The position numbers and the translations under genes were made by a program. Shown here in pieces: positions 18,908 through 60,855 of a stretch of 64,000 bases of DNA (positions are counted from its first letter, which is position 1; the number at the start of each line of letters is the position of its first letter). Under the pieces are notes generated by a model that did not search any database, was not told the origin of the DNA, and saw only the letters and a list, made by a program, of their open reading frames with translations. The stretch is taken from the NCBI GenBank assembly GCA_963678775.2, contig CAXXGR010000004.1, positions 136,747 to 200,746 of the forward strand. Direction: 5' to 3'. This stretch comes from Candidatus Kapaibacterium sp. (GTDB lineage Bacteria; Bacteroidota; Ignavibacteria; Kapaibacteriales; UBA2268).

Positions 18908-19085
18908 AATCCCAGATTTGTCATTAGATGCCGTAAAGTGCTGTAAAAGACCGTAGAATCAAGGAGTATGCTTACTTCCTTTGTAAGAAAAAATTACGAA
19001 ATTGCTGATTGAACAAGGGGTTTCAACCCCTTGCCATGCAATGACTTTAGAGCTTTTTCATTATTTCAAATGACATTTTTGGGAT
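18908..19085. mobile_element. MITE-like element copy 1 (~177 bp)
   Basis: Terminal inverted repeats AATCCCAGATTTGTCATT / AATGACATTTTTGGGAT; internal CAAGGGGTTTCAACCCCTTG hairpin; alignable with copy 2 at 24680-24859. Confidence 0.75.
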
Positions 19086-24679: not shown

Positions 24680-24859
24680 AAACCCGGATTTATCATTAGA
24701 TGTCATTATAGTACAGTAAATGACCGTAGAACCAACAAGCATACTTACTTTCACTGTAAAAAAATATTACGTAATTACTTATTGAACAAGGGGTTTCAAC
24801 CACTTACCATTCAATAACTTTAAAGCTTTTATATCTTTTCTAATGACAAATCTCGAATT
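24680..24859. mobile_element. MITE-like element copy 2
   Basis: Right end TCTAATGACAAATCTCGAATT is the reverse complement of the copy 1 left end at 19/21; shared GACCGTAGAA and ATTGAACAAGGGGTTTCAACC blocks. Confidence 0.75.
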
Positions 24860-35200: not shown

Positions 35201-37896
35201 AATAACTGGCCAATACCCATTGATGCTACACCATAAGCAAAACCACTGATTTCATTATTCATGATTACGTTGTTTGCATTTACTAATGTATCCAACTGAT
35301 CTGTGTTTGCTTGGAATTTTGCATTAATAGGAACTGTTGAACGCATTACTACGCCGGCAGTATAAGTCAATGTATTTGAACGTTTGTTTGCTTCATATTT
35401 AAATCCACCTTGAGCAGATGAATAAACTGTCAATGGCAATGAACATTTGTAAGATCCTGCATCTGTTCCTTCAATAATACAATTTTTGATTGTATTGTTT
35501 GAAGCACCATTACCTAAGTAGAATACACTTTTGAAAGGCTCGTCAGTATCCAAGTTAAACTTGAATGATTTCTGAGATCCACCATCAAAAATCAAGTACC
35601 CTCTAGAGTTTGAGTAAAAACGTTTAGCATCGTCACGGTTAGGATCATTACTCATTAGATGAACCACTGCATTTGGCTGAGATGGTTCAACGTTTTGAGC
35701 TATATAGATACCAATACCGTTACCACTACGCAAGTTGATATTCACAGAACCTTTGGTAACTGCTTTACTTTGAGAAGGTTTAAAGGTAATAGTATTTTCA
35801 GCACTTGCGCCGATAATAGTAGATGATAAATCTAAAGAAGGTAAATCTGAATTAGACTTGCTTCCTATGTTGTAAACTTGATCTGTAAGTTCAAATTCTA
35901 CCGGGCCACTAACACCTTTTGTATATAAGTCATTTACTGCATCTTCGAAAGTAGAATAATTTCTTGTTCCAGATACAGTGTTACCTATAGTATAAGTACC
36001 AGACATTGCATCAATAGCAGTAAAATATGAAACCATGCTATTGTTAGAGAGGTCTTTATCACCGGTATGAGTACATAATACTGTTATTTTATATTGACCC
36101 GGCTCTGTTATAGTTAGCGATTCAGGGAATGGGAATGAATTAGTATTATATTTACCGAACTGAAGTTCAGGTACTAAAGTTGAAGATTGATAAACAATGT
36201 TTGTACTTGGCATTGGCCCAGTAATTGTCATCGATGCGTTAACATTAGTTAAATCTAATACACCGTTATTAATAAATGTAGCTCTGGTTTTAACAGGTCT
36301 ATCTACATAAATACTACCAACCGGAGCATTAATTGAATAAACTGCAGGTTCATTATTATAAGCTACTTCAAACACCAAATCACTTTGGCTGGTATTTGGC
36401 ACAATATTGTTGCTTGGTTCATCATCAATGATATTTTTTTGAACCACAGAATATTCAACTCTATAATCACCAACTTGTACTAAAGGTCTTTGAGTTCTAA
36501 ATGGTGAAAAGTCTACACTATAATAATCGCCTGTACTCATCGGATTATTAGGATTTGACCAGCTGAATTGATCTTCGTATACTAAAGTACCTGTATCATT
36601 TCTGTATACTTTAACTGTAGCATCAAAAGAACTAACATCATTCAAACCAATATTTGTTACTCTTATATCTAAAGGTACTACATTATCAATCAAATATTTG
36701 ATTCTTGTTTTTGGTTTAGGATTACCAACTGTAGTTATAGATAAATCGTTTTCTAGAGCAATGATAAATTTCTGCTGTATCGTTTCTTCATAATTATCTT
36801 CGTCAGGAACAATCAACTTAGCTATTGCAATATATTCTCCACCTGGGATATTAGCAGCATTAGTAAGTAAGTCAAACTCACCTGTGTTATCCGCATCATC
36901 TGGGCTTGCAGGATTCATCTTTGCTGCAACACCTGAAGCGTGAGTAAATGTATAAACCACATCCTCTCCCTCAGGTTGAGGATTAGGATTAATAGTTGTA
37001 GTGTTAATATCACCTTCTTTAGAAGCTATATAGATTGGCACTTGTGTTTTCAAGTCTATAATTTGATATTCTAATCTAATAGAAGGTTGAGTTGCTTCTC
37101 TTGATAGAGTTACACTAGGAGCAGGAAATACTGAGCCACGTGCAAATATATGACCTGCAAGAGGAGTTATTGAAGTAAGTGATGGCAAAGGTTTTTTCAT
37201 TGAATAAGTTTTGCCACTTGGTAAGAACGGTGCAACTGTAGTAGTTAATAAACGACCGGTATTGGGAGTGACATTACTATAATAAAATGTACTTGGACTT
37301 CCCGGTTCTATATTTATATAATTCGCAGTAGTAGCACCTGTCATAAAGGCAATAGAATTGTTACTTCCAACTGCAACGTTATTCATTCCACTTCCATAAA
37401 CAAAAGATACTTCTCCATCTTCATTTATTTTAACCTGGAAGTTCATATTTGGAGTAGCATTTCCAAAATAAACCATACCTTTCCACTGTACAGTAATGAT
37501 ACGATTTGGAGCAGTACCTTCTACTGTCCAGCTTACATTACCAGCATTTGTAGCGTTATTTGACATTAAGTCTTCGTTACATGCTGTAACTACCATTGCG
37601 GAAGAAGTAGGCGTCATGCTTAAACTTCCCAAAGTCGTATTGTTGAAAGCCAACCATCCATTGTCAGATGCACGCAGCGTTGTTACTGCTACATCATCAA
37701 ACAGAAAAGTAAAGGGAGAATTGAAATTATATTCGTTATCATCCCCTGAGCCTAATACTGTACCACTTATAGGCACATAAGAACCATTACTTTCGTTGAT
37801 CACTTTAGTTAATAAAGGATCAGCTTTGAGACTTTCTACGCTCCCTATAATTACAAACAATGCAATCATAGAAACAAGAAATTTTTTGAGTGACAT
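32299..37896 (-). CDS. Giant T9SS-secreted surface protein A (Ig/CARDB-like domains, beta-helix repeats, choice-of-anchor-like DIGALEF, PIEL/FN3-like, T9SS CTD)
   Basis: Signal peptide; NDLSI...D.NN Ig-like repeats; N.I.NN.I repeats; RGSAGQRYDIGALEF; IPIELATF..NWST.SE; PNPV...SGSYTL CTD. Confidence 0.8.
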   Translation of the reverse strand: MSLKKFLVSMIALFVIIGSVESLKADPLLTKVINESNGSYVPISGTVLGSGDDNEYNFNSPFTFLFDDVAVTTLRASDNGWLAFNNTTLGSLSMTPTSSAMVVTACNEDLMSNNATNAGNVSWTVEGTAPNRIITVQWKGMVYFGNATPNMNFQVKINEDGEVSFVYGSGMNNVAVGSNNSIAFMTGATTANYINIEPGSPSTFYYSNVTPNTGRLLTTTVAPFLPSGKTYSMKKPLPSLTSITPLAGHIFARGSVFPAPSVTLSREATQPSIRLEYQIIDLKTQVPIYIASKEGDINTTTINPNPQPEGEDVVYTFTHASGVAAKMNPASPDDADNTGEFDLLTNAANIPGGEYIAIAKLIVPDEDNYEETIQQKFIIALENDLSITTVGNPKPKTRIKYLIDNVVPLDIRVTNIGLNDVSSFDATVKVYRNDTGTLVYEDQFSWSNPNNPMSTGDYYSVDFSPFRTQRPLVQVGDYRVEYSVVQKNIIDDEPSNNIVPNTSQSDLVFEVAYNNEPAVYSINAPVGSIYVDRPVKTRATFINNGVLDLTNVNASMTITGPMPSTNIVYQSSTLVPELQFGKYNTNSFPFPESLTITEPGQYKITVLCTHTGDKDLSNNSMVSYFTAIDAMSGTYTIGNTVSGTRNYSTFEDAVNDLYTKGVSGPVEFELTDQVYNIGSKSNSDLPSLDLSSTIIGASAENTITFKPSQSKAVTKGSVNINLRSGNGIGIYIAQNVEPSQPNAVVHLMSNDPNRDDAKRFYSNSRGYLIFDGGSQKSFKFNLDTDEPFKSVFYLGNGASNNTIKNCIIEGTDAGSYKCSLPLTVYSSAQGGFKYEANKRSNTLTYTAGVVMRSTVPINAKFQANTDQLDTLVNANNVIMNNEISGFAYGVASMGIGQLLVQGTGHNEEFYNTDNEIKNNVIHNVGRAGVFVGHEANSNIAGNRIYDIEGGCLGLDAAGIMAGGQSARGYFGYNNRMVNIMNNEISSISGSGMVSGIRVEQSPQQLVEGSILTTFPINPESMVIAGNIVWELLPNDANTARAGIYVFTQRSSFDVPFISEYSSRNDVIANNTIIVNGDDGVMNTRAVMGVGLQNVTGTILKNNAIATMDNEYAETCPVSACVFYEGPSMMEAGITSDRNVYWTENSESSVYRWIETDANGNKLSEAAINEYKTLPQWQVWSKTDKYSVYSKFMSDYEFVGTNPQNLRVKSNPMPLNSVLNNRGDIMDETTSDITGKVRGSAGQRYDIGALEFGGRVYVSDMESTTITAPASYRSTEGTFADAEHIMTEAPVEVKARLRNNGSLFQTGTEVRVEIYRELPTGTFGAAPDYEQMVKVDATSDEYVDVNFMLADGKGLEFEPETYADLRLNPMYAMSVPEVYSEMTANVTPRYKIVVITENDEDNTNNETSKIVRFFVRRSWMDMLISSEYVNADLSNNPTETEIAGKLNHDRVVEGLGFVGWHVAINPNATTIVNDTIDYDVFDRNNWEARAVDYGHYRTVVWSDAHDQMDDADVKLSRYEELDIENYFANGMSTDKKNMILASQEMIRNNGMIARDLFRATDHIKADPEVIDYTKVTGSAVGRNLTNTIAPTGFMGDAAPNPALVDIWDGGEGNAKLAYYYTNELSGTGTLLPEDKVMGVATSTIGTNVCYLGADWRHIADIETMLRSVFDFAEANGGIIIPIELATFDASAVGNRVDLNWSTLSEISSDRFDVERTEVTDGYADLFSKISEVAASGTSHSTRNYNTADYGVEFGKKYAYRLKMIDRDGKFEYSQIEEVEIDSPNGLTVSEVLPNPVSSTSKVKVNGAVTANIYLSDMSGRKVVEYANGSFEGNEIVIDASNLTSGSYTLVIEQDGVVITRNVRVVK

Positions 37897-38565: not shown

Positions 38566-41500
38566 TTATTTTACAATTTTGACTGTAATTGTTCTTACAA
38601 TATTGTTTGAATTTAGAACTAACGTGTAGTTACCGGACGCAATGTCTGCAGCATTCAACTTGATGATATGACTGCCGGCACTTAAGTTACCTGTAAATAC
38701 ATTAGCTACTACTTTGCCACTCATGTCAACTAAATACATTTCTACATTAGCGGACTCATAGACAGATACTGATACATTTGCATCTGTAACTACAGGATTT
38801 GGAGTAACTCCTTTGATTGTCAAAGAGTTTGCTCCTTCCAATATTACATATTCAGTATTGCTATATTCGAATTTACCATCGCGATCTATCATTTTCAATC
38901 TATATGCGTAAGTATTTCCGAATGATACATTGTAGTCAACTGCGTTATAATCAAGTACTTTACCTGATTTACCTGCTGCATTTACTGATTCTATTCTTCC
39001 GAATAAACCATCGAAGCCATTATTTGCAGTAGTTCTTTCGATTTCAAATCTGTCACTGTTCAATTCACTTGCAGTTGCCCAGTTTAAGACTACTTTGTTA
39101 TCTACTACATTCGCATCAAAGTTCACTAATTCTACCGGAATTATTGTTCCACCATTAGATTCAGCAAAGTCAAACAATGAACGCAATACTTTTTCAATAT
39201 CTGCAAAATGTCTCCAATCACTACCAAGTAGGATTCTGTTTGCTTTTGGAGATACTGTACCAACAGTGTGGATTTTTTCTGATTCAGGCAAATTAGCATT
39301 TCCTGATGTCACATTTGTGTAGTAGAAACCTAACTTAGCAACACCTTCTATATCCTGAGTCATAGTCATTAACGCAGGTTGTGGTGCAGCATCACCTGTA
39401 AAGTTAGTTGCAGTAATAAAGTGTACTAAGTTACGACCTATACTCATGCCTGATACATTAGAGTAATCTATGATGTCAGGAGTTGCTACCGGTCTGTTAT
39501 ATGCAGCAAATACTTTTTGTGAAAAGCCTGTTTCTTCATTTCTCAATAACTCTTGAGATGCAAAGATTAGATTTTTCTTAACACTGATTGTACCTGCAGC
39601 GATATAATCATTCAAATCCATTTCCTGGAATCTGGTTAAAGTGTTTGCCACTTCACTTCCTTCTACTGTTTTAGTATCATTTGCGTCTGACCAGATTACT
39701 GAATTATATGGAGAATATTCAATAGCTCTTGGTTCCCAGCTGTTTCTATCTAAAACATCATAATCAAATCTGTCATTTTCAATATCTGTAGCTGTAGGAT
39801 CTATTTCAACATCCCAGCCTAACAAATTCAAACCTTCGATAAGTTTGCTATGATTTAAAGCAGAAGCAATAACATCTTGAGTTGGATTATTATTTAAATC
39901 AGCATTTACATTTTCTGATGTCACCAACAATCTCAACCAAGAACGGCGGATGAAATAACGAACGTTTTTAGAAACGATATTGTTATAGTTGTCTTCGTCA
40001 TTTTCCACAGATACTTCTATTTTGTATCTTGGTGTCACATTTGCTGTCATATTTACAAATTTGCTTGGAACAGATGCTGCATAGCTTGAATTTAATCTTA
40101 AATCGCTGTATGTTTTTGGCTCAAATTTACCATTTAAATCAAACACTACATCTGTACTTTCATTTGTTGTTACATCAAATGATACTGTTTCTACATACTC
40201 TGGAGCTACTGCAAAGTCACCATTTGGCAACTCTCTGTAGATTGATAAATTTGCTTTTGTACCTTGTTGCATCAATGAACCATTATTGCGAACTCTTACT
40301 TTCACAGACAAAGGAAGAGATGTCATTATATATTCAGCATCCCCAAATTCAGTTCCATCATTAGCTTTAAAAGCAGCAGGCTCTAAAATTGTTGTGCTTT
40401 CTACATCACTTACATAAGATCTGCCATTAAATTCTAAAGCACCGATGTCATATCTTTGGCCGGCTTCACCACGTGCATTGCCAAGCAAGTCAGTAGTGTT
40501 TAACTCAACTCTATCACCTCTGTTATTCAATACCGAATTAAGTGGTAATGGATTTGATTTTACTCTTAATGATTGAGGAGCTGCACCTACAAATTCGTAA
40601 GCAGTCATAAAGTTTGATTCAACAGAGTTCATATCCTGTCCGGACCACACCATCCAATTGTTAAGTGTGTTATATTCTGTAGTATGTCCCATATTTAAGA
40701 TAGCATTAGCTTCATCTGTTTCAACCATTCTTGCAATAGTTGAAGCTGAATTATTAGTCCAAAATACGTTTCTGTCAGAAACAACATTCTGGTTTTTAAC
40801 ATCTCCATTTTGCAAGTACAGAGCTGCAGAAGCTAAACAACTTTCTGAAAATTCATTATCCATCACAGCAATAGCATTATTTTTGATTACTGCATTTCTG
40901 TTATCCTGCAAAGCCAAACCAATTACAGAACCTGAATTTACAACGCCATCATCGCCATTTACTACGATTGTATTGTTTACTACATTAGTATTTCTAACAA
41001 CATAGTCAGGTTGGAAAGCTTGCATAGATGAAGTTTGGAAGTTACCCTTTGTAGCTCTTTGTGAGAACACAGCAACACCAACTCTAGTTGTGTAAGTTTC
41101 CTGAGCATTTAACTGCCAGATACTGTTATTTGCAATTAAAACATTATCGTCTGCTTTAGGATATAAAGAAAAGGCATTATTTTCAATTACAATTGAAGGA
41201 GATTGGTCAACTTTAATACCATAGATTTCATTAGCATTAGTCAAATTGCTAATTTCATTACCTAAGATTTTGAGACCAACTGTGTTATAACCAAACATAT
41301 CTCTGTCAGCTTCACCGCCGGCAACGATACCGCAAGCTGATGCTACTAAAGTGCCCTGCACGTCGTAAATTCTATTATGACGAATTTCAGAACCTTCTTC
41401 AAAGCCAACAAATACACCTGCATGCCCAACATTGCTGATTGAGTTAGATTCGTATACGTTATTTGCGTTATAGAACATTGTATTTTTATTTACTCTGCCT

Positions 41501-44187
41501 GCTTCAAATAACAAGCCTGTACCCATAGAAGCAATACCATAACCAAAACCACTAATTTCATTATTAGCAATAACGTTATTGTCTGCTGTCAATGTATCCA
41601 AGTTAAAGAAGTTTGAGTTTGTTTTGTCATACAAAGGAGCTACTGATCTCAATACAACTGCTGCGGTGTAGTATGCAGTGTTGCTTCTTTGGTCTGCTTC
41701 TTGAGTAAATGCTCCCAAACCTGCATTATATACAGTTAAAGGCAGAGAAGAAGACAAGTTAGGGGTATCATCAGTAATGATACAGTTTTTGATTTGGCAA
41801 TTAGAAGCACCAGAACCTAAATAAAATACTGAGGCAAATTTATCATTTTTGGTCTCTAAGTTAAATTTGAAAGATTTTTGGCTACCACCATCAAAAATAA
41901 TATAACCACCAGAATTTGCAAATCTGTTTTTCTTGCTGTCTGTAACCACATGTACGGCAGCATTTGTATTACGTGGAGAGAAGTTCTGAGCAATATAGAT
42001 ACCAATACCATTAGCTGATTTCAAATTGAAATTGATACTAGCTTTAGATGTAGAAAGAGCATCAGAAGGTTTGAAAGTAATCGTGTTTGCATCGCTAACA
42101 CCAATAATTCTTGAAGACATATCCAATGCAGGACCTTCTAAGTTCACACTGCCAATTTCGTAACTTGGATCTAATAATTCAAAAGTTACCGGTCCATCTA
42201 CACCTTTTAAATATAGCATGTCCAAAGCAGATTTAATTGATGTAAAGTTTCTTGTTCCGGTGCCATTTGCACTAATTGTATAAGTACCGGACATCAATGT
42301 TTCTACATTAAAAGTAGATTCTACTGTATTATTTGTCAGGTCTTTATCGTTAGGACTATTAATACTAACAACGCATTTATAAGTACCCGGCAATTCAGGA
42401 ATAAATTCACTAATAAATGGAACTGAAGTCACATTATAATTACCTGCCTGTAAATCCTGTATATTCATTTCGTCTTGGTACACTACATTTGTAGACGGCA
42501 ATGGACCAACGATAGTAAATACTGCAGGTATGTTAGACAAATCTACGATACCATTATTAATAAATTTAGCTCTTGGGATTAAAGGTCTTCCTACAAATAC
42601 GTTTGCATTTGGTGCTTCCACAGATACGGCACCCGGTTCTACATCATATACAATATCAAAATAATGTCTGCCGGAAGCAGCTGTACCAATATTATTATTG
42701 ATAGGCATATCATCATCATCACTAAGCAATTCTGAAGTATACACAACGTAGTATTGCCCCACATGAGCTGCCGGAGTCATAGTTCTGAAGCTAGGAAAAT
42801 CAACTGAAACAAAATCACCTGTGTGAAGTGGTCTTGCTGCATTCTGCCAATCGTAAACTTCAGGGCCATAAACTATATTATCATTGTTAGCATCATATAT
42901 AGTAGCTGTTACACTAAAACTAGAGATATCTGCAGTACCATAGTTTCTCATTCTTACTTGAAGAGGAACAATATTATTGATCAAATATCTGCCATCTTTT
43001 CTAGGATATTTTACATCGCTTACAGCAAGGTCGTTTTCCAATGCGATTTGAACATTTTTAGTGATCACCTGAGCCGGTTTATCACTTCCTACTGTAATAA
43101 GCTTACATATTAATTCATATCTACCGGGTACGATAGTTGCACCATCTGTAATCAAATCAAAACTACCATCATTGATATCCGAATCAGGATTAGCTCTATC
43201 ATAAGCAGCAGCTTTGCCAATTGCATGAGTGATTGCAAGAGTTTCTTTTATGCCTACCGGTTGAGGATTAGGAGTGAAAGTCCCTGTAGTTGCATCGCCT
43301 TCATTAGTAGCAGTATAAATTACTTCACCTGTTTGAGTATTGGTTAATGTGTACTCAATAGTAAAATCAGGCATATCAGCTAAACGCAAAACTTCTATAG
43401 AAGGAGCAGGATACGTTTCACCTATTTTCCAAAGCACATCATTTTCTGTAGATTCAGAAAGTAGTATAGGTGTTGTCAATCCAAATTCAATTGTTTTACC
43501 TATTGGAAAAAGAGAAGCATCATCTTGAGTCAAGAATTTAGTAGTTACATCTCTTCGGGCAATAAATTCAGATGCAGTAGGTTCCAAATTTATGTATCTC
43601 AATTTATCATTACCAGTGATAAAGCAAATTGAATTATTAGAACCACCCTCATCGAGAGCTGTCATATTACCATATACAAATTTTATTACATTGCTTCCTT
43701 CTTCAAGGTGTAACTGAAAAGATAAACTATTTGTCCATCCATCCGAATTCCCCCAATATCTAACAGTCTTCCATTCTGCTACGAATGTTCGATTTGGTGA
43801 AGTACCAATAACATCCCAACGAACATCACCGGTTCCCTCATCAGAATCAAAATCTTCACACATTGGAGCCAGCGTGTTACTATAGTTGATAGTATACGAA
43901 TACCCTGTCAATGTAGCAGCTTCAGTTGCTGAAAACAGCTGAGTATTGCCATTTGAAGTAATTCTGATTTTATCGAACACAGAACCATCATGTTCAAAAG
44001 AAAATGGTAAATCTACATCCCATTTTTCTGAATCACCAGGTCCTAATACAGTACCTGCAATCGGAGTATAATCTCCATTATAAGTAGTTATCTGCAAGTC
44101 GTTCAAATCCACCGCCATTGCTTTGGGTGAACTTAAAAGGACAACGAGTAACACTAACAATGCACTTAACACATTGAACTTTTTCAT
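38566..44187 (-). CDS. Giant T9SS-secreted surface protein B, paralog of A
   Basis: Collinear with A over almost the full length (IFDGGSQKSFKFNL, RVKSNP.PLNSVLNNRG, AGQRYDIGALEF, MTANVTPRYKI, YAYRLKMIDRDGKFEYS). Confidence 0.8.
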   Translation of the reverse strand: MKKFNVLSALLVLLVVLLSSPKAMAVDLNDLQITTYNGDYTPIAGTVLGPGDSEKWDVDLPFSFEHDGSVFDKIRITSNGNTQLFSATEAATLTGYSYTINYSNTLAPMCEDFDSDEGTGDVRWDVIGTSPNRTFVAEWKTVRYWGNSDGWTNSLSFQLHLEEGSNVIKFVYGNMTALDEGGSNNSICFITGNDKLRYINLEPTASEFIARRDVTTKFLTQDDASLFPIGKTIEFGLTTPILLSESTENDVLWKIGETYPAPSIEVLRLADMPDFTIEYTLTNTQTGEVIYTATNEGDATTGTFTPNPQPVGIKETLAITHAIGKAAAYDRANPDSDINDGSFDLITDGATIVPGRYELICKLITVGSDKPAQVITKNVQIALENDLAVSDVKYPRKDGRYLINNIVPLQVRMRNYGTADISSFSVTATIYDANNDNIVYGPEVYDWQNAARPLHTGDFVSVDFPSFRTMTPAAHVGQYYVVYTSELLSDDDDMPINNNIGTAASGRHYFDIVYDVEPGAVSVEAPNANVFVGRPLIPRAKFINNGIVDLSNIPAVFTIVGPLPSTNVVYQDEMNIQDLQAGNYNVTSVPFISEFIPELPGTYKCVVSINSPNDKDLTNNTVESTFNVETLMSGTYTISANGTGTRNFTSIKSALDMLYLKGVDGPVTFELLDPSYEIGSVNLEGPALDMSSRIIGVSDANTITFKPSDALSTSKASINFNLKSANGIGIYIAQNFSPRNTNAAVHVVTDSKKNRFANSGGYIIFDGGSQKSFKFNLETKNDKFASVFYLGSGASNCQIKNCIITDDTPNLSSSLPLTVYNAGLGAFTQEADQRSNTAYYTAAVVLRSVAPLYDKTNSNFFNLDTLTADNNVIANNEISGFGYGIASMGTGLLFEAGRVNKNTMFYNANNVYESNSISNVGHAGVFVGFEEGSEIRHNRIYDVQGTLVASACGIVAGGEADRDMFGYNTVGLKILGNEISNLTNANEIYGIKVDQSPSIVIENNAFSLYPKADDNVLIANNSIWQLNAQETYTTRVGVAVFSQRATKGNFQTSSMQAFQPDYVVRNTNVVNNTIVVNGDDGVVNSGSVIGLALQDNRNAVIKNNAIAVMDNEFSESCLASAALYLQNGDVKNQNVVSDRNVFWTNNSASTIARMVETDEANAILNMGHTTEYNTLNNWMVWSGQDMNSVESNFMTAYEFVGAAPQSLRVKSNPLPLNSVLNNRGDRVELNTTDLLGNARGEAGQRYDIGALEFNGRSYVSDVESTTILEPAAFKANDGTEFGDAEYIMTSLPLSVKVRVRNNGSLMQQGTKANLSIYRELPNGDFAVAPEYVETVSFDVTTNESTDVVFDLNGKFEPKTYSDLRLNSSYAASVPSKFVNMTANVTPRYKIEVSVENDEDNYNNIVSKNVRYFIRRSWLRLLVTSENVNADLNNNPTQDVIASALNHSKLIEGLNLLGWDVEIDPTATDIENDRFDYDVLDRNSWEPRAIEYSPYNSVIWSDANDTKTVEGSEVANTLTRFQEMDLNDYIAAGTISVKKNLIFASQELLRNEETGFSQKVFAAYNRPVATPDIIDYSNVSGMSIGRNLVHFITATNFTGDAAPQPALMTMTQDIEGVAKLGFYYTNVTSGNANLPESEKIHTVGTVSPKANRILLGSDWRHFADIEKVLRSLFDFAESNGGTIIPVELVNFDANVVDNKVVLNWATASELNSDRFEIERTTANNGFDGLFGRIESVNAAGKSGKVLDYNAVDYNVSFGNTYAYRLKMIDRDGKFEYSNTEYVILEGANSLTIKGVTPNPVVTDANVSVSVYESANVEMYLVDMSGKVVANVFTGNLSAGSHIIKLNAADIASGNYTLVLNSNNIVRTITVKIVK

Positions 44188-51015: not shown

Positions 51016-52116
51016 ATGAAATTCTCTTTACAATCAATCGACACTCCGGCTCTTCTTATAGATTCGGTAAAAATGCATGAAAATTTAGACTTTGTACAAG
51101 AATTAGCTAAAAATAAAATTGTCAATCTACGACCTCACTTCAAAACTCATAAATCAATAGAGTTTGCGAAACTTCAAATTAGCAAAGGAGCTGTGGGCAT
51201 TGCCTGTGCAAAAACAGAGGAAGCGCTTTGCTTAGCTCAAGCTGGCATTAAAGATATTCAAATAGCTAACGTTATCACCGGCAAGCAAAAATACCAACGC
51301 ATCGTCGAAATCCATAAACTTGTGGACAAACTAACCTTCGGGGTAGACTCTTTAGAGCATATAGAAGAAGCAGATGCTGTTGCTAAAGCTAACGACATAT
51401 TCTTGGATGTACTTATAGAAGTTGACACGGGACTACACAGAAATGGTATTGCTACCAAAGAGCAAATCATTTTACTTGCTAAAGCAATATTAGATACTAA
51501 CAATTTGAATCTAGAAGGTATCTACACTCACGCCGGTAGCGTTTATGCTGCTCATAATACAGACGAAATTGTGGATATAAGCAAAGAATCTGTCAGGCTA
51601 ATGAGCCATTTAGTTAAATCACTCAAAGCGGAAGGTTTTAAATGCCCAACTGCTAGCATAGGTTCAACTCCTGAACTTCGCCACTTTCGCAAAACAGAGC
51701 ATATGTCTGAGCTTCGCCCCGGAAATTATATTTTCTATGACAATATGCAAGTAAGCTTGGGTTCTTGCACAGAGGACGAACCTGCACTCTACGTTGTAGC
51801 ATCAGTAATCGGCGTGCATAAAGACAGAGTAGTCTTAGATGCAGGCTCAAAAGCACTGGGCTTAGACAAAGGAGCTCACGGAAACAACAATATCCAAGGC
51901 TATGGTAAAATAATCGGCAAAGAGTCTCAAATTTCAAGAGTGTCCGAAGAGCATGGCATAATTGACGAACCTGCGGATGAATTCGCTATCGGAGATAAAT
52001 TATTGATTATTCCAAATCATGCCTGTGCAGTAGTAAATCTATTTGACTATTATTTGCTTTTGGAAGATGAAGAAGTAAGAGAAGTAAAAATAGATGCCAG
52101 AGGAAAAAGCAAGTGA
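51016..52116 (+). CDS. Fold-type III PLP enzyme (D-threonine aldolase/D-serine dehydratase, DSD1 family)
   Basis: DTPALLID, RPHFKTHK, ELRPGNY, DAGSKAL, SEEHG, IPNHAC. Confidence 0.9.
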   Translation: MKFSLQSIDTPALLIDSVKMHENLDFVQELAKNKIVNLRPHFKTHKSIEFAKLQISKGAVGIACAKTEEALCLAQAGIKDIQIANVITGKQKYQRIVEIHKLVDKLTFGVDSLEHIEEADAVAKANDIFLDVLIEVDTGLHRNGIATKEQIILLAKAILDTNNLNLEGIYTHAGSVYAAHNTDEIVDISKESVRLMSHLVKSLKAEGFKCPTASIGSTPELRHFRKTEHMSELRPGNYIFYDNMQVSLGSCTEDEPALYVVASVIGVHKDRVVLDAGSKALGLDKGAHGNNNIQGYGKIIGKESQISRVSEEHGIIDEPADEFAIGDKLLIIPNHACAVVNLFDYYLLLEDEEVREVKIDARGKSK

Positions 52117-52239
52117 GCTAAAGATTTTAAAATGATATACTCTATCAGAAATCAAAGATGCAAGCGTTAGACATCAATATTTCTTTTCTGATTACTATAA
52201 TTCCCAGAACAATATAGATTCTTTTATTTGATACATTGC

Positions 52240-52284
52240 AAAAAAAGTGGGCAGTAAAAACAATTACCTGCCCACATTTTTTTT
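52240..52284. terminator. Hairpin formed with the left direct repeat; likely the original mltG terminator
   Basis: AAAAAAAGTGGGCAGTAA pairs with TTACCTGCCCACATTTTTTTT. Confidence 0.6.
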
Positions 52285-52376
52285 AAATATTCGTATATTT
52301 TTAGAGTGTCCGGCCAAATCTTCCGAGAAGTTATGCTTACCACTTCCGTCTCCTAATGCCACCATATAATACCATT
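52264..52376. repeat. 113-bp direct repeat, left copy (duplicate of the mltG 3' end)
   Basis: Identical by eye to 54579-54691; begins exactly at the mltG stop codon (TTA). Confidence 0.95.
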
Positions 52377-52436
52377 GAGAGTATAATGCACATTTCATTC
52401 CTAAAACCGGCTATTAACTTATTAACAGTCAAATAT

Positions 52437-52468
52437 GCTAACTATAGTATGTAGATTTAGATAAGATA
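52437..52468 (+). promoter_or_regulatory. Putative C-box of the controller protein
   Basis: ACTATAGTATGTAGATTTAGAT resembles the GACT-TAT-AGTC-GT-GACT architecture of C.AhdI/C.Esp1396I operators; lies upstream of the AGGAGG RBS. Confidence 0.4.
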
Positions 52469-52495
52469 TTCAGCTATATTTATTAGGAGGAAATT

Positions 52496-52729
52496 ATGGG
52501 AACAGATATGCTAAAGTCATTCGGATCCGAAATAAGAAATTTACGGATGTCAAAGAATCTATCGCAAGAAAGATTAGCAGAAATAGCTGGTGTGCATAGA
52601 ACTTATATAGGCATGATAGAAAGAGGAGAAAAGAATATTTCACTTGCAAATATTGCAAAAATAGCGAAAAGTTTAAATATACATATTTATGAAATATTTC
52701 AGAGAATAGAATGCCAGGAAATGAACTAG
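52496..52729 (+). CDS. R-M controller (C) protein, XRE HTH
   Basis: LSQERLAEIAGVHRTYIGMIERGEKNISLANIAKIAKSL. Confidence 0.85.
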   Translation: MGTDMLKSFGSEIRNLRMSKNLSQERLAEIAGVHRTYIGMIERGEKNISLANIAKIAKSLNIHIYEIFQRIECQEMN

Positions 52730-53475
52730 AGATAGTAAAATTTTTACTTTCAAGAAAAGGCAAAATTGTATTACCCCATGTTGGTAAAGTTGACAAAATC
52801 TCTACACCCATCAAAAATAATTTGATTAGTGAAATAATCTACCCTGAAGATATTTCTTTAGTTACATCAGATAATTCATCAAAAAAAGCAGATATTTTAC
52901 TTAATGACATTGGTATCTCACTCAAACAAACAGGTGCTAGTTTTGCTTTTAATAGAATTCAAAGGGAGAGTGTAGTTTCATTGTTCAAGTTATTGAAGAT
53001 TAAATCCCCAAGAAAAATATTAGATAAACTTGATCTGGAAGTTGATAATTTTCATAACGGTATCAATAGCTCTAGGTCTAGACCATGGAGAAATATTTTT
53101 ACTTTACAAGATTTTACTATAATTTTGCAATATTTGATGATGAAAGGAAGTCCTAACTTGAGAGAATCTTCCTTTCCTGCACAATATATTATAGAAGGAA
53201 AACCTAAATTAAATGTAAATAGTGATTTAAAACTATTTACATTTGAAGAATATTTAGAAACTTATCAAGACAACTTATTTGTTGCTATCCGAAGATGTTG
53301 GTATGGACAATCTAGTAAATCAGAACATAATAGGGCAATGTCATTGATGAAGAAAAGTGGGAATACTAAGTGGATTTACGATAACGTCAGTGGAACTCCT
53401 AAAGGTGAATGGAGAGATAATATTGCTGAATCAGACAGGAAAACAGTGTACTATATTTCTATAGAGAAGAAATGA
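52711..53475 (+). CDS. Putative type II restriction endonuclease (PD-(D/E)xK-like)
   Basis: Lies between and overlaps the C and M genes; [14 protein letters not shown] resembles a nuclease catalytic motif. Confidence 0.6.
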
Positions 53476-54563
53476 AAAATAATAATTATAAAATCGCATC
53501 TTTCTTTTCTGGAGCTGGCGGATTAGATTTGGGATTTAGTTTGGCTGGTTTTGATATTTCTTGGGCAAATGAATATGACAAAACAATATGGGATACTTTT
53601 GAATATAATCATAGACATACTTTTTTAGACAGAAGAAGTATTACTGATATTAAATCAGAAGAAATTCCTGAAGTTGATGGAATAATTGGTGGTCCTCCTT
53701 GTCAAAGTTGGAGTGAAGCAGGTGCTTTAAGAGGTATAAATGATAAGAGAGGAGAATTATTTTACGATTTTATACGAATTATTTCAGAAAAACAACCTCG
53801 ATTTTTTTTGGCAGAAAATGTTTCAGGTATGTTATTGCCTTCGAATAAAACTGCTTTGGAAAACATAAAGAAGTTATTTATTGCTAGTGGTTATAAACTT
53901 TACTTTAAATTACTAAATGCATCTGACTATGGAATTCCACAAGACAGAAAAAGAGTTTTTTTTATAGGTTTTAGATCTGATTTGGATATAAATTTCAATT
54001 TTCCGATTCCAACATTTAAGAATAAAACCTTTTTAAAAGATGCAATTTTTGATTTAAAAGAATGCGCTATACCTGCTGCTGAAAAAAATAAGGCAAATAC
54101 TAAATGTATCGTTCCAAATCATGAATATATGACTGGTGGATTTTCGTCCATATTTATGTCTAGAAATAGAGTTCGTTCATGGGATGAACCATCTTTTACT
54201 ATTCAGGCAGGAGGAAGACATGCACCATTACATCCACAAGCTCCAAAAATGCCTTTAGTAAAAGAAAATGTTCGCATCTTTGTGAAAGGCAAAGAAAATC
54301 TATATAGAAGATTAACTGTTAGAGAATGTGCAAGAATACAAACTTTTCCTGATGATTTTATATTTCTTTATGATAATATCGCCAATGGTTATAAGATGGT
54401 GGGAAATGCCGTACCTGTTAATTTAGCTTATATTTTAGCAAAAGAAATTATAGCTCATTTGCACAGTACAAATACTAAACATAGTATTCCTCCAAAATGG
54501 GAAGAAGTTAAACAACTAATTAATCAGAATCATTCAGAACCAGTACCTTTAACCTTGTTTTAA
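53472..54563 (+). CDS. C5-cytosine DNA methyltransferase, HaeIII/NgoPII-like (predicted GGCC)
   Basis: [39 protein letters not shown]; [34 protein letters not shown] recalls M.HaeIII. Confidence 0.9.
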
Positions 54564-54578
54564 ATACAGCAGAAAAAT

Positions 54579-54691
54579 TTACCTGCCCACATTTTTTTTA
54601 AATATTCGTATATTTTTAGAGTGTCCGGCCAAATCTTCCGAGAAGTTATGCTTACCACTTCCGTCTCCTAATGCCACCATATAATACCATT
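54579..54691. repeat. 113-bp direct repeat, right copy (current mltG 3' end)
   Basis: Identical by eye to 52264-52376. Confidence 0.95.
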
Positions 54692-56287: not shown

Positions 56288-56698
56288 ATGGGCATGAAGA
56301 TAACTTTCCCGGGAAACAAGAAGGTAAATGCGGAATTTAACGGATGGGTAGTAGCAACTGATCAACCTGTAAATGGTGGTGGCGATGGAACAGCTCCTGC
56401 TCCTTTTGAATTATTTTTAGCATCATTAGGCACTTGTGCAGGCATATATGTAGCAGGTTTTTGCCAATCGCGTGGCATAGACATGGAAGGGATAGAAATT
56501 GATCAGGACTTGAAATGGGACCCTGTCAAACAAAAAATTGGTAAAATTGAACTGAACATAAAAGTACCGAAAGATTTCCCTGAAAAATACTACGACGCAC
56601 TTGTTAAATCTGCTTCTATGTGTGCAGTTAAAAAAACAATTCAAGATCCGCCGGAGTTTGAAATCAAAACAGTAGTTAATGACGCAGTAAACGCATAA
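56288..56698 (+). CDS. OsmC-family protein
   Basis: DQP..GGDGTAPAPFELFLASLGTC ... CAVKK; AGGAG RBS. Confidence 0.88.
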   Translation: MGMKITFPGNKKVNAEFNGWVVATDQPVNGGGDGTAPAPFELFLASLGTCAGIYVAGFCQSRGIDMEGIEIDQDLKWDPVKQKIGKIELNIKVPKDFPEKYYDALVKSASMCAVKKTIQDPPEFEIKTVVNDAVNA

Positions 56699-56725
56699 AT
56701 AAAATTTTCACTATGACAAAGCACG

Positions 56726-56765
56726 AAAAGGGGACCTGATTTATAATTGGGTTCCCTTTTTTTTT
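56726..56765 (+). terminator. Terminator of the osmC-like gene; intron target site 1
   Basis: AAAAGGGGACCTGAT...ATTGGGTTCCCTTTTTTTTT. Confidence 0.85.
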
Positions 56766-56985
56766 GTTCGCCCAGCTTGTGTATCAACTATAGGGAGTAA
56801 GTCCCGAACGGCATAGATAGTAGGAATCGTTAGCTTAAGACAAAGTGTGATATATGGAATAGACCAATGAATTGCTGTACTAACGGTAACCAGATGTTTA
56901 GTGAACCCGCCCAGTACACCCTAAGCTGTACGTACTGAAGTATGAGAGGTCGGAGCATGAAATAATCATGCTCCTCCTACTCGAT
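56766..56985 (+). mobile_element. ORF-less group IIC intron remnant 1 (220 nt)
   Basis: 5' GTTCGCCCAGC..AGTCCC..GTAGGAATCGTTAGC (IIC domain I start); 3' AACCCGCCCAGTACACC..GTACGTAC..TGAGAGGTCGGAGCATGA..TCATGCTCCTCCTACTCGAT (DV/DVI); starts directly after the terminator T run. Confidence 0.8.
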
Positions 56986-57101
56986 TATTTTATACTGCAA
57001 TAATTGTGATAAATAATTTTTTTAATATTATAAAGTATACTATATTGAACATATATATATAATTTAGCCAGCTTATTTGAAAAAGTACAGAGGAACACAC
57101 T

Positions 57102-59468
57102 ATGAAATTTATATTTTTAATTTTTATTATATCATTGTATTCACTTAACCTTCTATCCCAAACCTCATCCATAATTCCGAATCATGGGCAATGGCAGGAG
57201 GAAGTTAAATTTATGGCTCAGTCAGGCAATCAAACTATTTGGGGGACAGATAAAGGTCTTGTTTATAAGATTTTTAAAGATAGCCAAGATAGTGTGGGCA
57301 CTTATGTGACTTGCAATTATGTAGGTGCAAATTCTTTTGATATAAGTTACCGGGAAACAGATACTTATTATAATTATATGCTTGGCAATGATCCTGCTAA
57401 ATGGAGAAAAAAAGTGCCGCTTTGCACTGCTGCCGAAGCCAATAATGTGTTTGAAAATGTTGATATTAAATACTTCTTTCAAAATAATAACTTAAGATAT
57501 GACTTTTATCTGCATAAAAATGCTAAGCCTGAAACCATCAAGTTAAGATTTTCCGGCCATGAAAAATTATATGTCGACAAAAAAGGTGAGTTAGTAATAC
57601 AAACAAAATCCGGCGATATTAAACATGGCAACTTAAAATCATATAAAAGTGATGAGATTTTAGCATCTAATCATATTAAAAGTTCATTTGAAGTCTTGGA
57701 TAATAGCACAGTTTCATTTCAGGTGGCTGAAACGGAAGATCCTAATATGATTATAGATCCGGTAGTTTTTGGAACATATTACGGAACATGGGTTGGGGAC
57801 TTTTCATGGGACACTAAGATAATGGATGATGGAAGAGTTTTCGTTGTTGGTGAGACTGGTCACAATTCATTACCTTTAACAGAAGGAGCAATAGATACTA
57901 CTTATGGAGATAAATTACAATTCTCTCAAGGCTTTATATCAGTATTTGACATTAACAGTAAAAAACTTTTATATGCTACATTGTGGGGAACTAGAGATGG
58001 GAATGATGTAAAGTTAATTGATGTAGATAAAGAGGGTAACGTTTATGTTATTTGTAAAGATGACCCAGCTACATTTTATAAAACTGACGATGCTTTTATT
58101 AAAGAATCCGAACATACAACCTATCTGATGCAGGGATGCCTAACAGTTTTTAATCCTGAGATTAGTGAAGTAATATATTCTTCCCCTTTAGGCTCACATA
58201 ATGAATTAACTACTATTATTGATATGGAAGTAGTAGATGGTATAATATATTTTATTGGTGCACACAGAAGAGAAACAGAGGATTATATAATACATGCCAG
58301 CCAGAATGCCTATAAAACCGAATATATTGAAGGAGATATGGCAAATGCAATCGTAGGAGCTTTTGACTATAAAACATCTTCTTTTAAATATCTGACTTAT
58401 CTTGGAACTAATACTGTTTATAATTTATCTATGGCAGTAACAGAAGAAAAAGATATTTGTGTCTTAGGTATTTACCAAGACTATGGAATACAAGGAACAG
58501 AAGGTTCATTCTCTAATATTCAATCTGAAGAAGGAACATTTGTAGCAAAATTTGACAGCAGCCTTCAGCATGCAAAATATATATCTATTTTGCATGACAG
58601 AGGTTATTGGAATGGCAATACTTTTAATATTGAAGCCTACCCTAACGGTGATTTGGTAATTGTTACTTCGTCCTTGCCACCCATTTTTGAGAAAGATGCT
58701 TATACTTATTATTTTAAAGATAAAACTGGTTGGTGCCCGGAAGGTCTCGGACTTTCAATAATGAGATTAAGTAATGATGGGAGTCAAATTGTATCTTCAG
58801 CATTTATTGAAATGGACATATATCTTGGTACAGAAGACATTGTAGTTGATTTGGATAAAGATGAGAATATTTACGTATACTCACAGGTAACAAATGACTC
58901 CATGCCTGTTACCAAAGGTTATTTCTGTAATGAAATAATAGGAAATAATCATAGAGAAACCGGATATTTTCAAGTATTTAATCCAAATTTAGATTCTTTG
59001 TTGTATGCTACTTATCTGTGTGCAGATTGGGATGTTTTTGTGAAGGATATTGATATTGATTCAGCAGGTAATGTTGCTTTATTATCATTAGTAGGTCCCG
59101 GTGATTTATTACCCGTAACAGAAGGCGAATTCCAACAGCATTTCGGGGATTTGGATGTATATTTACTTGTAATCAAGCCTGACATAGGCACCGGAGTAGA
59201 AGAAGATGTAATCTTCGACAGCTTTCCCAAAGCTTACCCGAATCCTATCGCAAACGGCACACTCAGCATTGACTTAGATCAAGCTGAAGAAATAACAAAC
59301 GTACAAATGTTTAACTATATGGGCGAGCTTGTAGCAAGTTTCCCTGAACTAGAAAATACTTACACAAAAAATCTACAGCTCCAAATAGGCAACTATCCAG
59401 CAGGCGCTTATGTAATCCGTATCAGTTGCAAAGAAAAAGTTATTTCGAAGAATATTATAGTAGAGTAG
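57102..59468 (+). CDS. T9SS-secreted SBBP-repeat beta-propeller protein
   Basis: Signal peptide; PNHGQW, YNYMLGNDPAKW, IIDPVVFGTYYG; repeated D..GNVYV / LLYATYL; YPNP...AGAYVIRI CTD. Confidence 0.8.
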   Translation: MKFIFLIFIISLYSLNLLSQTSSIIPNHGQWQEEVKFMAQSGNQTIWGTDKGLVYKIFKDSQDSVGTYVTCNYVGANSFDISYRETDTYYNYMLGNDPAKWRKKVPLCTAAEANNVFENVDIKYFFQNNNLRYDFYLHKNAKPETIKLRFSGHEKLYVDKKGELVIQTKSGDIKHGNLKSYKSDEILASNHIKSSFEVLDNSTVSFQVAETEDPNMIIDPVVFGTYYGTWVGDFSWDTKIMDDGRVFVVGETGHNSLPLTEGAIDTTYGDKLQFSQGFISVFDINSKKLLYATLWGTRDGNDVKLIDVDKEGNVYVICKDDPATFYKTDDAFIKESEHTTYLMQGCLTVFNPEISEVIYSSPLGSHNELTTIIDMEVVDGIIYFIGAHRRETEDYIIHASQNAYKTEYIEGDMANAIVGAFDYKTSSFKYLTYLGTNTVYNLSMAVTEEKDICVLGIYQDYGIQGTEGSFSNIQSEEGTFVAKFDSSLQHAKYISILHDRGYWNGNTFNIEAYPNGDLVIVTSSLPPIFEKDAYTYYFKDKTGWCPEGLGLSIMRLSNDGSQIVSSAFIEMDIYLGTEDIVVDLDKDENIYVYSQVTNDSMPVTKGYFCNEIIGNNHRETGYFQVFNPNLDSLLYATYLCADWDVFVKDIDIDSAGNVALLSLVGPGDLLPVTEGEFQQHFGDLDVYLLVIKPDIGTGVEEDVIFDSFPKAYPNPIANGTLSIDLDQAEEITNVQMFNYMGELVASFPELENTYTKNLQLQIGNYPAGAYVIRISCKEKVISKNIIVE

Positions 59469-59477
59469 AAAATGTAT

Positions 59478-59513
59478 AAAAAGCAGAGGCAATCAACTTA
59501 CCTCTGCTTTTTT
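59478..59513. terminator. Terminator of the SBBP gene; intron target site 2
   Basis: AAAAAGCAGAGG...CCTCTGCTTTTTT. Confidence 0.85.
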
Positions 59514-59516
59514 ATA

Positions 59517-59597
59517 GTTCGCCCAGTATACCCCAAGCGGTACGTACTGAGGTATGAGAGGTCGGAGCATGAAATAATCATGCTCCTCCTACTCGAT
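59517..59597 (+). mobile_element. Minimal group IIC intron remnant 2 (81 nt; 5' end fused to DV/DVI)
   Basis: GTTCGCCCAG followed directly by TATACCCCAAGCGGTACGTAC...CCTACTCGAT; 59520-59612 matches 56908-57000 at 89/93. Confidence 0.8.
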
Positions 59598-59625
59598 TAT
59601 TTTATACTGCAAAACAAGATAAATA

Positions 59626-60855
59626 TTATTCTGCAGATTTTACTTCACCAAAAGTAGTAGTTTCTTTAGCTACTAATTTATGCTCTGCTTGACGACCTTG
59701 GAATTCACCTTCGTAGCCACCTTTATATGTTTCAACTACTTTCTTAGTTTTGTCATAGCTCACGATTTTATTTTCATTATAAGAGTAAGCTTTTGCACCA
59801 TAGCAGTAGTGCTCTGCAACTTTAGCATTTTCAGTAAATAAGAATTTCTGTTTGCCTGTCACAAAGTCAACTTCTTGGAAGTTAAATTTTTGACCATCAT
59901 GGAATCTGTCAAATTCTTTAGTTTCAGGATTATATCTATTTTCTTCGATTGAAGCAAGTTTACCATTCGCATCATAGCTGTAGCTGTGCTTCATGTTTTT
60001 CTCAGTAAGTGTTTCCATTGCAGGATCGCTGTATCCAATAACTCCAATAACCCTTCCTTGATCATCTTTTTCGATTTTGTACCACTCTTCAGTTGCATGG
60101 TGTTCGCAATCTGCTTCGCCAGCCAACATGTGAGTAGGTATGCCTTCTTCGTTGAAGTCAGTTTTACTTACCCAATACAGATCTCCAATTTTAAATTCTT
60201 TTTCCGGCTTTTGTTCTGCTTCTTCCATTCTTTGTTGATCATCTTTAGTGAAATAAGCTTTCACAACATCAACGAAAAATGCTGCATCCTGTGGGCCTTC
60301 ATGTCTGTATTCTACAGCAGGGAAGTATTTATAACTACTAACCATAACTACGTTATCGCCGTCTGCATTTTTAAATTCAGGATCATTACTGAATTTTTTA
60401 TATTCTTCGGAAATAAGATATCCTTGCTCGAAGTTATATTTCAAGTGGTATGATTTATTTTCAGGAGCCATTTCTCCATCATAAACAGTTTTTTCCAAAA
60501 GGAAATAGCTATGTGGGCAGTATTTTGTTTCTACTGTTTCAGTGATAGTTTCCAACTCTTCAGTTAATTCTTTGACAGGCATTCCGTCCTTGTCGAACTC
60601 TCTTTTGACTACTTTATTGATAGAGCCGTCTTCAGCTTTGTATTCAGCTTTAGTCCAAAAGAAATCATTAGGGCTAGCATAAGTATACTCAATGATTTCC
60701 ATTTCTGTTCCGTCTTCTTTGTAAGTTTCTACTGTTTTAGTAATAGGACGGATGTAAGTTTGCACTTCTAAATCTGGTGTCTCAGCGTCTTTATTTCCAC
60801 AAGCTGAAATAAAGAGTACGGCTGCAAATAGTGCAAGTGATAACAACTTTTGCAT
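59626..60855 (-). CDS. Hypothetical lipoprotein, beta-strand-rich with YD-like repeats
   Basis: Lipobox ISA-C; FDKDGMP, DDQGRV, YSYDANGKL. Confidence 0.7.
   Translation of the reverse strand: MQKLLSLALFAAVLFISACGNKDAETPDLEVQTYIRPITKTVETYKEDGTEMEIIEYTYASPNDFFWTKAEYKAEDGSINKVVKREFDKDGMPVKELTEELETITETVETKYCPHSYFLLEKTVYDGEMAPENKSYHLKYNFEQGYLISEEYKKFSNDPEFKNADGDNVVMVSSYKYFPAVEYRHEGPQDAAFFVDVVKAYFTKDDQQRMEEAEQKPEKEFKIGDLYWVSKTDFNEEGIPTHMLAGEADCEHHATEEWYKIEKDDQGRVIGVIGYSDPAMETLTEKNMKHSYSYDANGKLASIEENRYNPETKEFDRFHDGQKFNFQEVDFVTGKQKFLFTENAKVAEHYCYGAKAYSYNENKIVSYDKTKKVVETYKGGYEGEFQGRQAEHKLVAKETTTFGEVKSAE

Follow-up and report, generated by a model that had tools for sequence, protein, structure and literature searches.

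The locus described here lies in a 64,000-nucleotide (nt) stretch of DNA, the window, which belongs to contig C4 of a Candidatus Kapaibacterium sp. genome (G000:C4). Coordinates given as plain numbers are positions in this window, and G000 stands for the window's own genome. The locus holds a cargo gene between two short relics of a group IIC intron, and the original prediction was that these form a gene cassette bracketed by intron remnants. From left to right it consists of an osmC-like gene, terminator 1, relic 1 and a 15-nt tail, a spacer, the cargo gene, terminator 2, three bases, relic 2 and a second tail, and the stop codon of a convergent gene of 409 amino acids (aa). The last of these had been called a lipoprotein gene, a label kept here. 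The features are as follows.

56288..56698, + strand: osmC-like gene, 136 aa (Pfam OsmC, E 3.9e-19)
56725..56761, + strand: terminator 1, a hairpin followed by a T-run to 56765 (terminator scan; fold -21.3 kcal/mol, z -5.6)
56766..56985, + strand: relic 1, 220 nt (homology to both ends of the full-length intron G000:C2:191819-193719)
56908..57000, + strand: direct repeat copy 1, made up of domain V, domain VI and the 15-nt tail (repeat search)
56986..57000, + strand: tail copy 1, 15 nt past the intron end (read from the sequence)
57001..57101, + strand: AT-rich spacer of 101 nt, 5′ of the cargo gene, without homology to the flank of the lipoprotein gene
57102..59468, + strand: cargo gene, 788 aa, with DUF7948, a possible beta-propeller region and a C-terminal sorting domain of the type IX secretion system (T9SS) (Pfam)
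59478..59512, no single strand: terminator 2, a hairpin with an A-run and a T-run, capable of acting in both directions (fold -16.7 kcal/mol, z -4.9)
59517..59597, + strand: relic 2, 81 nt, the intron's first 10 nt running straight into domains V and VI at a CGCCCAG heptamer (alignments)
59520..59612, + strand: direct repeat copy 2 (repeat search)
59598..59612, + strand: tail copy 2, apparently running on into the lipoprotein gene's native 3′ flank (comparison with G004)
59626..60855, - strand: convergent 409-aa (lipoprotein) gene (open reading frame; no Pfam family at E≤0.001)

The OsmC-like protein is 100% identical between G000 and the sister genome G003, and the lipoprotein gene has orthologues in G001-G004 (74-98% identity). 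The hairpins of terminators 1 and 2 both carry T-runs and behave as terminators in the scan and on folding, although the scan called terminator 2 on the - strand only, its 11-nt loop being above the limit for the + strand. Relic 1 and relic 2 each start 5 nt past the stem of the terminator before them, so that both 5′ junctions lie directly behind terminators, as had been predicted.

Both relics share the 5′ start GTTCGCCCAG, and both end in ...CCTACTCGAT, followed by the identical 15 nt TATTTTATACTGCAA. The direct repeat that includes this tail (56908-57000 and 59520-59612) is 93 nt long and 96% identical, with mismatches at repeat positions 10, 15, 20 and 32, and is the sole repeat in that part of the window. 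The repeat with its four mismatches, and the coordinates and lengths of the relics (220 and 81 nt), were correct as originally given.

The relics were not recognized as group II introns by Rfam. No matches were obtained at the gathering cut-off in the whole window, and of four matches at E≤10 over 56600-59750 none was to a group II family. With relic 1 as the sole query, RF02003 was the one family matched (14.4 bits; cut-off 49), RF00029 giving no match; the other weak matches (SpF25, ceN110, mir-627 and ctRNA) were rejected as terminator or AT-rich noise. A full-length relative is present in the same genome, at G000:C2:191819-193719 (1,901 nt). It scored above the cut-offs for RF02001 (157.9 bits), RF01998 (69.8 bits) and RF00029 (46.0 bits), and it sits just behind a hairpin and T-run. 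Its domain V, read from the Rfam match, is short and has a CGC triad. The intron codes for a protein of 418 aa that has RVT_1 and GIIM as its only domains and whose best relative of solved structure is the reverse transcriptase (RT) of GsI-IIC (6ar1; E 2e-131 over residues 1-416).

The relics are 84-90% identical overall to the ends of this intron: relic 1 matched it at 89% over 76 nt at the 5′ end and at 84% over 95 nt at the 3′ end, and relic 2 at 89% over 76 nt. The canonical 3′ end, ...CTACTC[G/A]AT, is common to the full-length intron and to seven copies in two sister genomes, which diverge thereafter, in agreement with the intron end originally proposed. The G000:C2 element is a class C intron, and the relics are pieces of a close relative. 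The group IIC assignment of the relics is made because of this homology to a full-length IIC intron in the same genome, and not from Rfam. The proposal that they are remnants, without open reading frames, of a terminator-targeting group IIC intron was thus upheld, and the full-length intron with an RT that it had suggested looking for exists. The Rfam scan it had suggested gave no group II match above the cut-off in the relics themselves, but they do match the ends of an Rfam-positive intron.

What remains of the intron in relic 1 is the 5′ end (approximately 78 nt), the 3′ portion of domain IV, domain V in damaged form and domain VI. The stretch from domain I, most of which is gone, to domain III was lost at a GACAA microhomology near 56843; in an alignment with a 670-nt mini-intron from G002, a species of the same genus, this is a single deletion of approximately 475 nt between two GACAA words. 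The form of relic 2 is that of relic 1 minus everything between two CGCCCAG heptamers. We class both as relics and not as introns because domains I-III are deleted and RF00029 finds nothing in them at E≤10, whereas it scores 46 bits on the full-length intron. The relics are now unable to act as ribozymes.

Comparison with G003 revealed a presence/absence polymorphism. Collinearity of contig G003:C14 with G000:C4 extends 24.8 kb leftward (94% identity) and 8.8 kb rightward (93%), and the sole break is a 2,612-bp unit. At this locus G003 has the osmC-like gene, terminator 1, one relic, the tail and the lipoprotein gene, with no cargo gene; the empty osmC-lipoprotein site with a single remnant that had been predicted is therefore found in a relative. 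The unit is bounded exactly by the repeat. The relative is thus collinear on both sides and has one recombinant repeat copy with nothing in between, which is the pattern of a repeat-mediated polymorphism.

The 5′ part of relic 1 differs from the G003 relic at 2/142 positions, whereas the repeat in relic 1 differs from it at 7/93 (Fisher p = 0.03) and the repeat in relic 2 at only 3/93. All four differences between the two repeat copies lie on relic 1, and G003 is relic-2-like at all four. The flanks of G000 and G003 differ at 1/300 positions left of the relic and at 11/300 right of the tail. By this left/right pattern the G003 relic is a left part of relic-1 type joined to a right part of relic-2 type, as a crossover between the two relics would be expected to produce. 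A 6,266-nt contig from a run of another study (X1) also joins 56907 directly to 59520; its variants match G003, and it may come from the same organism and hence give no independent support. Over 47000-66000 of the window, identity to G003:C14 is a mosaic in which stretches of 99-100% (51500-54250 is one) are interspersed with others of 88-93%, which suggests recent recombination between the G000 and G003 lineages. The sliding identity between the two genomes, an 88-100% mosaic, is compatible with either direction of change.

The osmC locus and the lipoprotein-photolyase locus are adjacent only in G000 and G003. They are 150-200 kb apart in G001 and G004 and on different contigs in G002, and in none of these three genomes is the cargo gene beside either locus. 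Because the adjacency is restricted to G000 and G003, the osmC-lipoprotein junction in which the relics lie is a lineage-specific point of rearrangement in its own right.

To locate other copies of the intron end, its last 34 nt, with two positions left free, were scanned against 185,579 species genomes. Eight copies were found, all in G002 and G003; seven had seven different 3′ flanks, and the eighth was the G003 orthologue of the window locus. The tail followed none of eight other intron 3′ ends (the full-length G000:C2 intron and the seven scanned copies), and a query of the intron end plus tail gave no matches in the metagenome scan. Copies bearing the tail were found at one locus only, two in G000 and one in G003, and beyond the tail the repeat does not extend, only chance words of 8-13 nt being shared. 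The tail does not belong to the intron and is specific to this locus.

In G004 and G002, a 253-aa gene and a bidirectional terminator precede the lipoprotein gene, and no intron is present. In G004 the 8-mer TTTATACT directly follows the T-run of this terminator, 15 nt before the shared TTATTCTGCAG at the lipoprotein stop codon. The same 8-mer lies inside the tail in G000, 17 nt before TTATTCTGCAG, and the two fall in the same columns of a MAFFT alignment. This is suggestive of the tail being the native flank of the lipoprotein gene, in which case the right-hand copy would be the original. A simple reciprocal exchange between two introns was considered and rejected: the G000 orthologue of the 253-aa gene (C2:939608-940369) has a terminator directly followed by a convergent gene, with no intron.

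Domain V was compared among the copies. It is uniform in seven intact copies, two with an RT and five mini-introns, whereas relic 1, relic 2 and the G003 copy share a derived form. Read by eye, the triad of this variant has changed from CGC to CCC, the wobble partner of the central G has changed too, and the terminal loop is enlarged, with 6 nt in place of 4. The triad's central G is essential in domain V. The variant still folds as a hairpin and gives no RF00029 match. When 130 family genomes were searched for it with two mismatches allowed, it was found only at this locus, in G000 (both relics) and in G003 (one); a match in G118 proved to be unrelated coding-like sequence. Because the relics lack domains I-III and the damaged variant, which both repeat copies share, is confined to one locus, we infer that the damage probably occurred at this site first and that the repeat was then copied as DNA rather than by retrohoming. 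Were the variant the domain V of a mobile lineage, further copies would be predicted; it occurs at one locus only, and copying as DNA is therefore preferred.

Matches of the cargo protein to DUF7948 (E 9e-41) and to the T9SS sorting tail (E 1.5e-9) are clear, but the SBBP label given to it originally is weak (PF06739, 17.1 bits, below the cut-off of 20.5). Its best relatives are two genes in G002, with 53-61% amino-acid identity. At E≤1e-20 no homologues were found in G001 or in G003, a 98% complete assembly, and the match in G004 covers the C-terminal sorting domain only. G000 contains no second copy of the unit. Scans of genome and metagenome contigs, from which the window genome's own records may be left out, yielded no relatives of the cargo, and homologues of the spacer (57001-57160) in G001-G004 were limited to chance-level matches (E 0.002 to 1). 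The unit was found in no other context in G000, in its relatives or in the collection scans, and no excision joint was seen in three sequencing runs, though contigs drop rare forms.

Those three runs (X2, X3 and X5), all from one sample, hold the region in their contigs with a share of 0.99. The short-word contigs break exactly at the repeat, so that the unit appears as a contig of 2,611 nt, one repeat period. Its depth in the three runs was 5.1 against 7.6 and 5.4 for the two flanks, 10.8 against 12.3 and 7.6, and 6.7 against 7.7 and 10.0; a depth about that of the flanks fits a chromosomal single copy. No contig of X2, X3 or X5 contained the deletion joint 56907-59520 or a circle junction, although contigs drop rare variants and break at the repeat.

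Other repeats occur elsewhere in the window. A 125-nt direct repeat of 97% identity (52252-52376 and 54567-54691, 2.3 kb apart) lies just upstream of the locus. Repeat families approximately 6,285 nt apart, with 70-84% identity, at 33000-37100 and 39300-43400 indicate two large tandem paralogous genes, and a separate 142-nt repeat (81%) is found at 18934-19075 and 24707-24848.

Further copies of the intron occur in G002, G003 and G000. G002 has three 670-nt mini-introns without open reading frames, which show no differences in three pairwise comparisons; each stands behind a different hairpin and has a different 3′ flank. They lie on G002:C5, C31 and C16 (L028 557-1226, L029 449-1118 and L030 482-1151) and their domains are intact. 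No homologue of the G000 intron RT at E≤1e-30, and no GIIM domain over the cut-off (best 22.2 bits), was found in the G002 assembly, which is 98% complete. The protein that mobilized these mini-introns is thus missing or unassembled.

In G000 six further fragments were identified (C2:849700-849777, C2:168444-168479, C8:83558-83601, C9:13492-13522, C9:6592-6810 and C10:533053-533085). A T-run precedes each of the four 5′ fragments, and the fragment at C2:849700 has the same unusual GTT 5′ end as the window relics. By eye only, terminator placement is alike for the full-length copy, the other 5′ fragments and the three G002 mini-introns. Relic 1, relic 2 and a third relic, at G003:C14:53573-53844 (minus strand), each carry a different internal deletion flanked by short repeats. 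These different deletions, together with the six G000 fragments, indicate that short-repeat deletion is the usual route of decay for this intron group here. The third relic lies exactly where collinearity of G003:C14 with G000:C4 ends (near 222305) and collinearity with G000:C2 begins (near 842503), and the terminator hairpin at which it stands is empty of intron in G000:C2. A second synteny break between G000 and G003 is also marked by an intron relic.

We consider it slightly better than an even chance that the locus was shaped by passive, repeat-mediated host DNA recombination acting on dead intron relics, most likely with the gene lost from G003. Two group IIC introns from a single sub-lineage, with a 5′ end of GTT instead of GTG, would have inserted behind two neighbouring terminators, one that of osmC and the other that of an accessory DUF7948/T9SS gene abutting the lipoprotein gene. 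Both would then have decayed through microhomology deletions, relic 1 losing sequence at GACAA and relic 2 at CGCCCAG. The shared 93 nt would be no mobile unit but domains V and VI of one damaged relic plus 15 nt of the native lipoprotein-gene flank, copied as DNA onto the other relic. This could have happened by gene conversion or break repair that copied domains V and VI of relic 2 and the 15-nt flank onto relic 1, with illegitimate rejoining at 57000/57001, or by a template switch at the CGCCCAG microhomology during replication. Taking these two routes jointly and counting both directions of later change, we regard it as probable that one or the other was used. The resulting direct repeats would have served as passive homology on which host recombination looped out the 2,612-bp gene-plus-terminator unit, leaving G003 without the gene and with a relic whose left part is that of relic 1 and whose right part is of relic-2 type. 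It is from these patterns that we infer copying as DNA, the sequence of events and which lineage changed. Several points weigh against this account. The tail is matched in the G004 flank over a single 8-mer, in AT-rich DNA, and the domain V variant is taken to have been inactive when copied from our reading of the catalytic triad and because no other copies were found. None of the proposed copying steps was seen directly, and no mechanism is demonstrated for the junction of the tail with TAATTG (57000/57001). Today's 93-nt repeats would place the crossover in their leftmost 9 nt, which is odd unless relic 2 was then longer and still had its 5′ part, as we assume. The Logan contigs break at the repeat and cannot phase its two copies. 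Finally, because osmC is not next to the lipoprotein gene in G001, G002 and G004, and neither locus there has a cargo gene, these outgroups do not discriminate between loss of the unit in G003 and its gain in G000.

A gain in the G000 lineage is possible but rather unlikely. The ancestor would have been G003-like, and the cargo gene, its terminator and the stub of an intron earlier homed behind this terminator would have entered by recombination with the resident relic, duplicating the 93 nt; the right join would be anchored by homology or by the CGCCCAG microhomology and the left one illegitimate. The accessory nature of the cargo fits this, since it has no homologue in G003 or G001 at the threshold used, only 53-61% relatives in G002 and a sorting domain in G004, and so does the unit's right boundary, which falls exactly on a CGCCCAG heptamer also present in the resident relic. 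Of the two repeat copies it is the left one that has diverged (7/93 from G003), as expected of foreign DNA, and the mosaic of 88-100% identity blocks shows that DNA exchange between the lineages occurs. Yet the donor would already need the intron 3′ part and the same tail before the gene, which only shifts the problem, and no second copy or donor context was found in G000, its relatives or the genome and metagenome scans. Two joins would also be needed, against one for a direct-repeat deletion. Loss in G003 is therefore favoured over gain in G000, though not strongly, because a deletion is one ordinary event and a gain requires a donor in which intron end and tail already preceded the gene.

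Copying through RNA would account for the tail in another way. A IIC mini-intron behind terminator 2 would have carried with it 15 nt of 3′ exon, because of a cryptic 3′ splice site or RT read-in, and retrohomed to the upstream osmC terminator with the RT of the full-length intron acting in trans. Such 3′ transduction is known from LINE-1 elements. Both 5′ junctions lie directly behind terminators, and removing relic 1 and its tail leaves a natural arrangement of terminator, 101-nt spacer and gene. The right-hand copy as the native home of the tail would give a clear source and target, G000 has an RT, and the three identical 670-nt copies in G002 show that copies without open reading frames can multiply. 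The locus-specific domain V would have to have been active, however, despite derived changes that include loss of the triad G (by eye) and the missing RF00029 match; the variant occurs at this locus alone among the 130 family genomes, and none of the eight other copies has any shared flank. We regard transduction as improbable. The premise of the original prediction, that independent retrohoming events should not share a 3′ flank, is logically sound. As its second alternative the prediction had offered a non-autonomous intron-derived element with a 3′ extension. A dispersed element of this kind, with its true 3′ end 15 nt past the canonical one, a short extension like that of the B.c.I4 family, would explain the identical 15 nt after both window copies. 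But the tail was found after 0/8 other 3′ ends and gave no metagenome matches, its copies are at one locus only, and it resembles the native G004 flank; this alternative fails and is the least probable of those considered. Scarcely more probable is an assembly artefact, in which the unit was misplaced between collapsed repeats, the chromosome is G003-like and the unit lies elsewhere or is circular. The contigs of all three runs break at the repeat, the 2,611-nt contig is one repeat period and the copies are unphased, as such an artefact would have it. Depth close to that of the flanks in every run argues otherwise, as do the four mismatches, which tie each repeat copy to its own left flank, the high contiguity of the assembly (10 contigs for 3.7 Mb) and the lack of a 56907-59520 joint in any contig of the three runs. 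A 2.6-kb circle without a replication gene is, moreover, no stable replicon.

Group IIC introns target terminators, and bacterial introns without open reading frames are rare, according to PMC4424553. Like GsI-IIC and other group IIC introns, those described here inserted directly behind intrinsic terminators, and the protein of the G000:C2 intron resembles that of GsI-IIC in being an RT without an endonuclease domain (E 2e-131), a likeness that applies to the full-length relative only, the relics having no open reading frame. The relics differ from these introns in lacking an open reading frame and domains I-III, and in a damaged domain V that fails the Rfam model. Bacterial group II introns are described as ending as fragments in PMC4181065, where the RmInt1-related FRE652 of Sinorhizobium is likewise an old, immobile intron fragment near genes, linked to rearrangements and to strain differences. 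Unlike FRE652, the present case has two relics in direct orientation which, with a copied flank, bound one gene, and a sister species with a recombinant single relic. Recombination between group II intron copies is reported to reshuffle flanks in PMC7947834, which describes chimeric relaxase genes and, citing Leclercq et al. 2011, rearrangements in Wolbachia; there as here, intron copies are portable homology that joins unrelated flanks. The introns in those accounts are intact and nearly identical, whereas here they are dead relics of 81-220 nt, associated with whole-gene presence/absence and synteny breaks.

The IIC-attC hypothesis for integron cassettes (Leon and Roy 2009, as cited in PMC3001079) is similar in holding that IIC introns behind terminators could recruit genes and join them to other sequences, but the window relics are inactive. 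In the B.c.I4 family, as described in PMC3261151, there is also sequence past domain VI, which travels with the intron; that extension is 53-70 nt long and conserved across sites, whereas the tail is 15 nt, confined to one locus and apparently homologous to the host flank. A keyword search of the literature, which cannot show absence in print, found no gene bounded by two intron relics with a shared copied flank.

The original idea that the cargo was captured or moved as an intron-bounded unit is borne out in a weak sense only, in that the unit is present or absent exactly at the repeat; there was no sign of movement elsewhere or of intron biochemistry. Its extension to a transposase-free route for shuffling secreted-protein genes was not borne out, as the inactive relics and the locus-only domain V point to host DNA recombination, and we make no claim for an intron-driven, transposase-free cassette route. 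The co-copied 15-nt flank is the one remaining oddity, and it matters only if the copying was RNA-mediated. Transduction, if true, would be a bacterial counterpart of that of LINE-1, and by bracketing a gene with direct repeats it would make gain or loss possible without a transposase or integrase. The case is in line with intron-mediated rearrangements reported before and brings in no new mechanism. It gives a clean, dated view of what group II intron pieces do once the retroelement has stopped working: a pair of dead relics bounds a polymorphism in which one of two sister species has a secreted-protein gene and the other lacks it. Such dead relics persist behind terminators as short portable homologies, and mark change in gene content and gene order.

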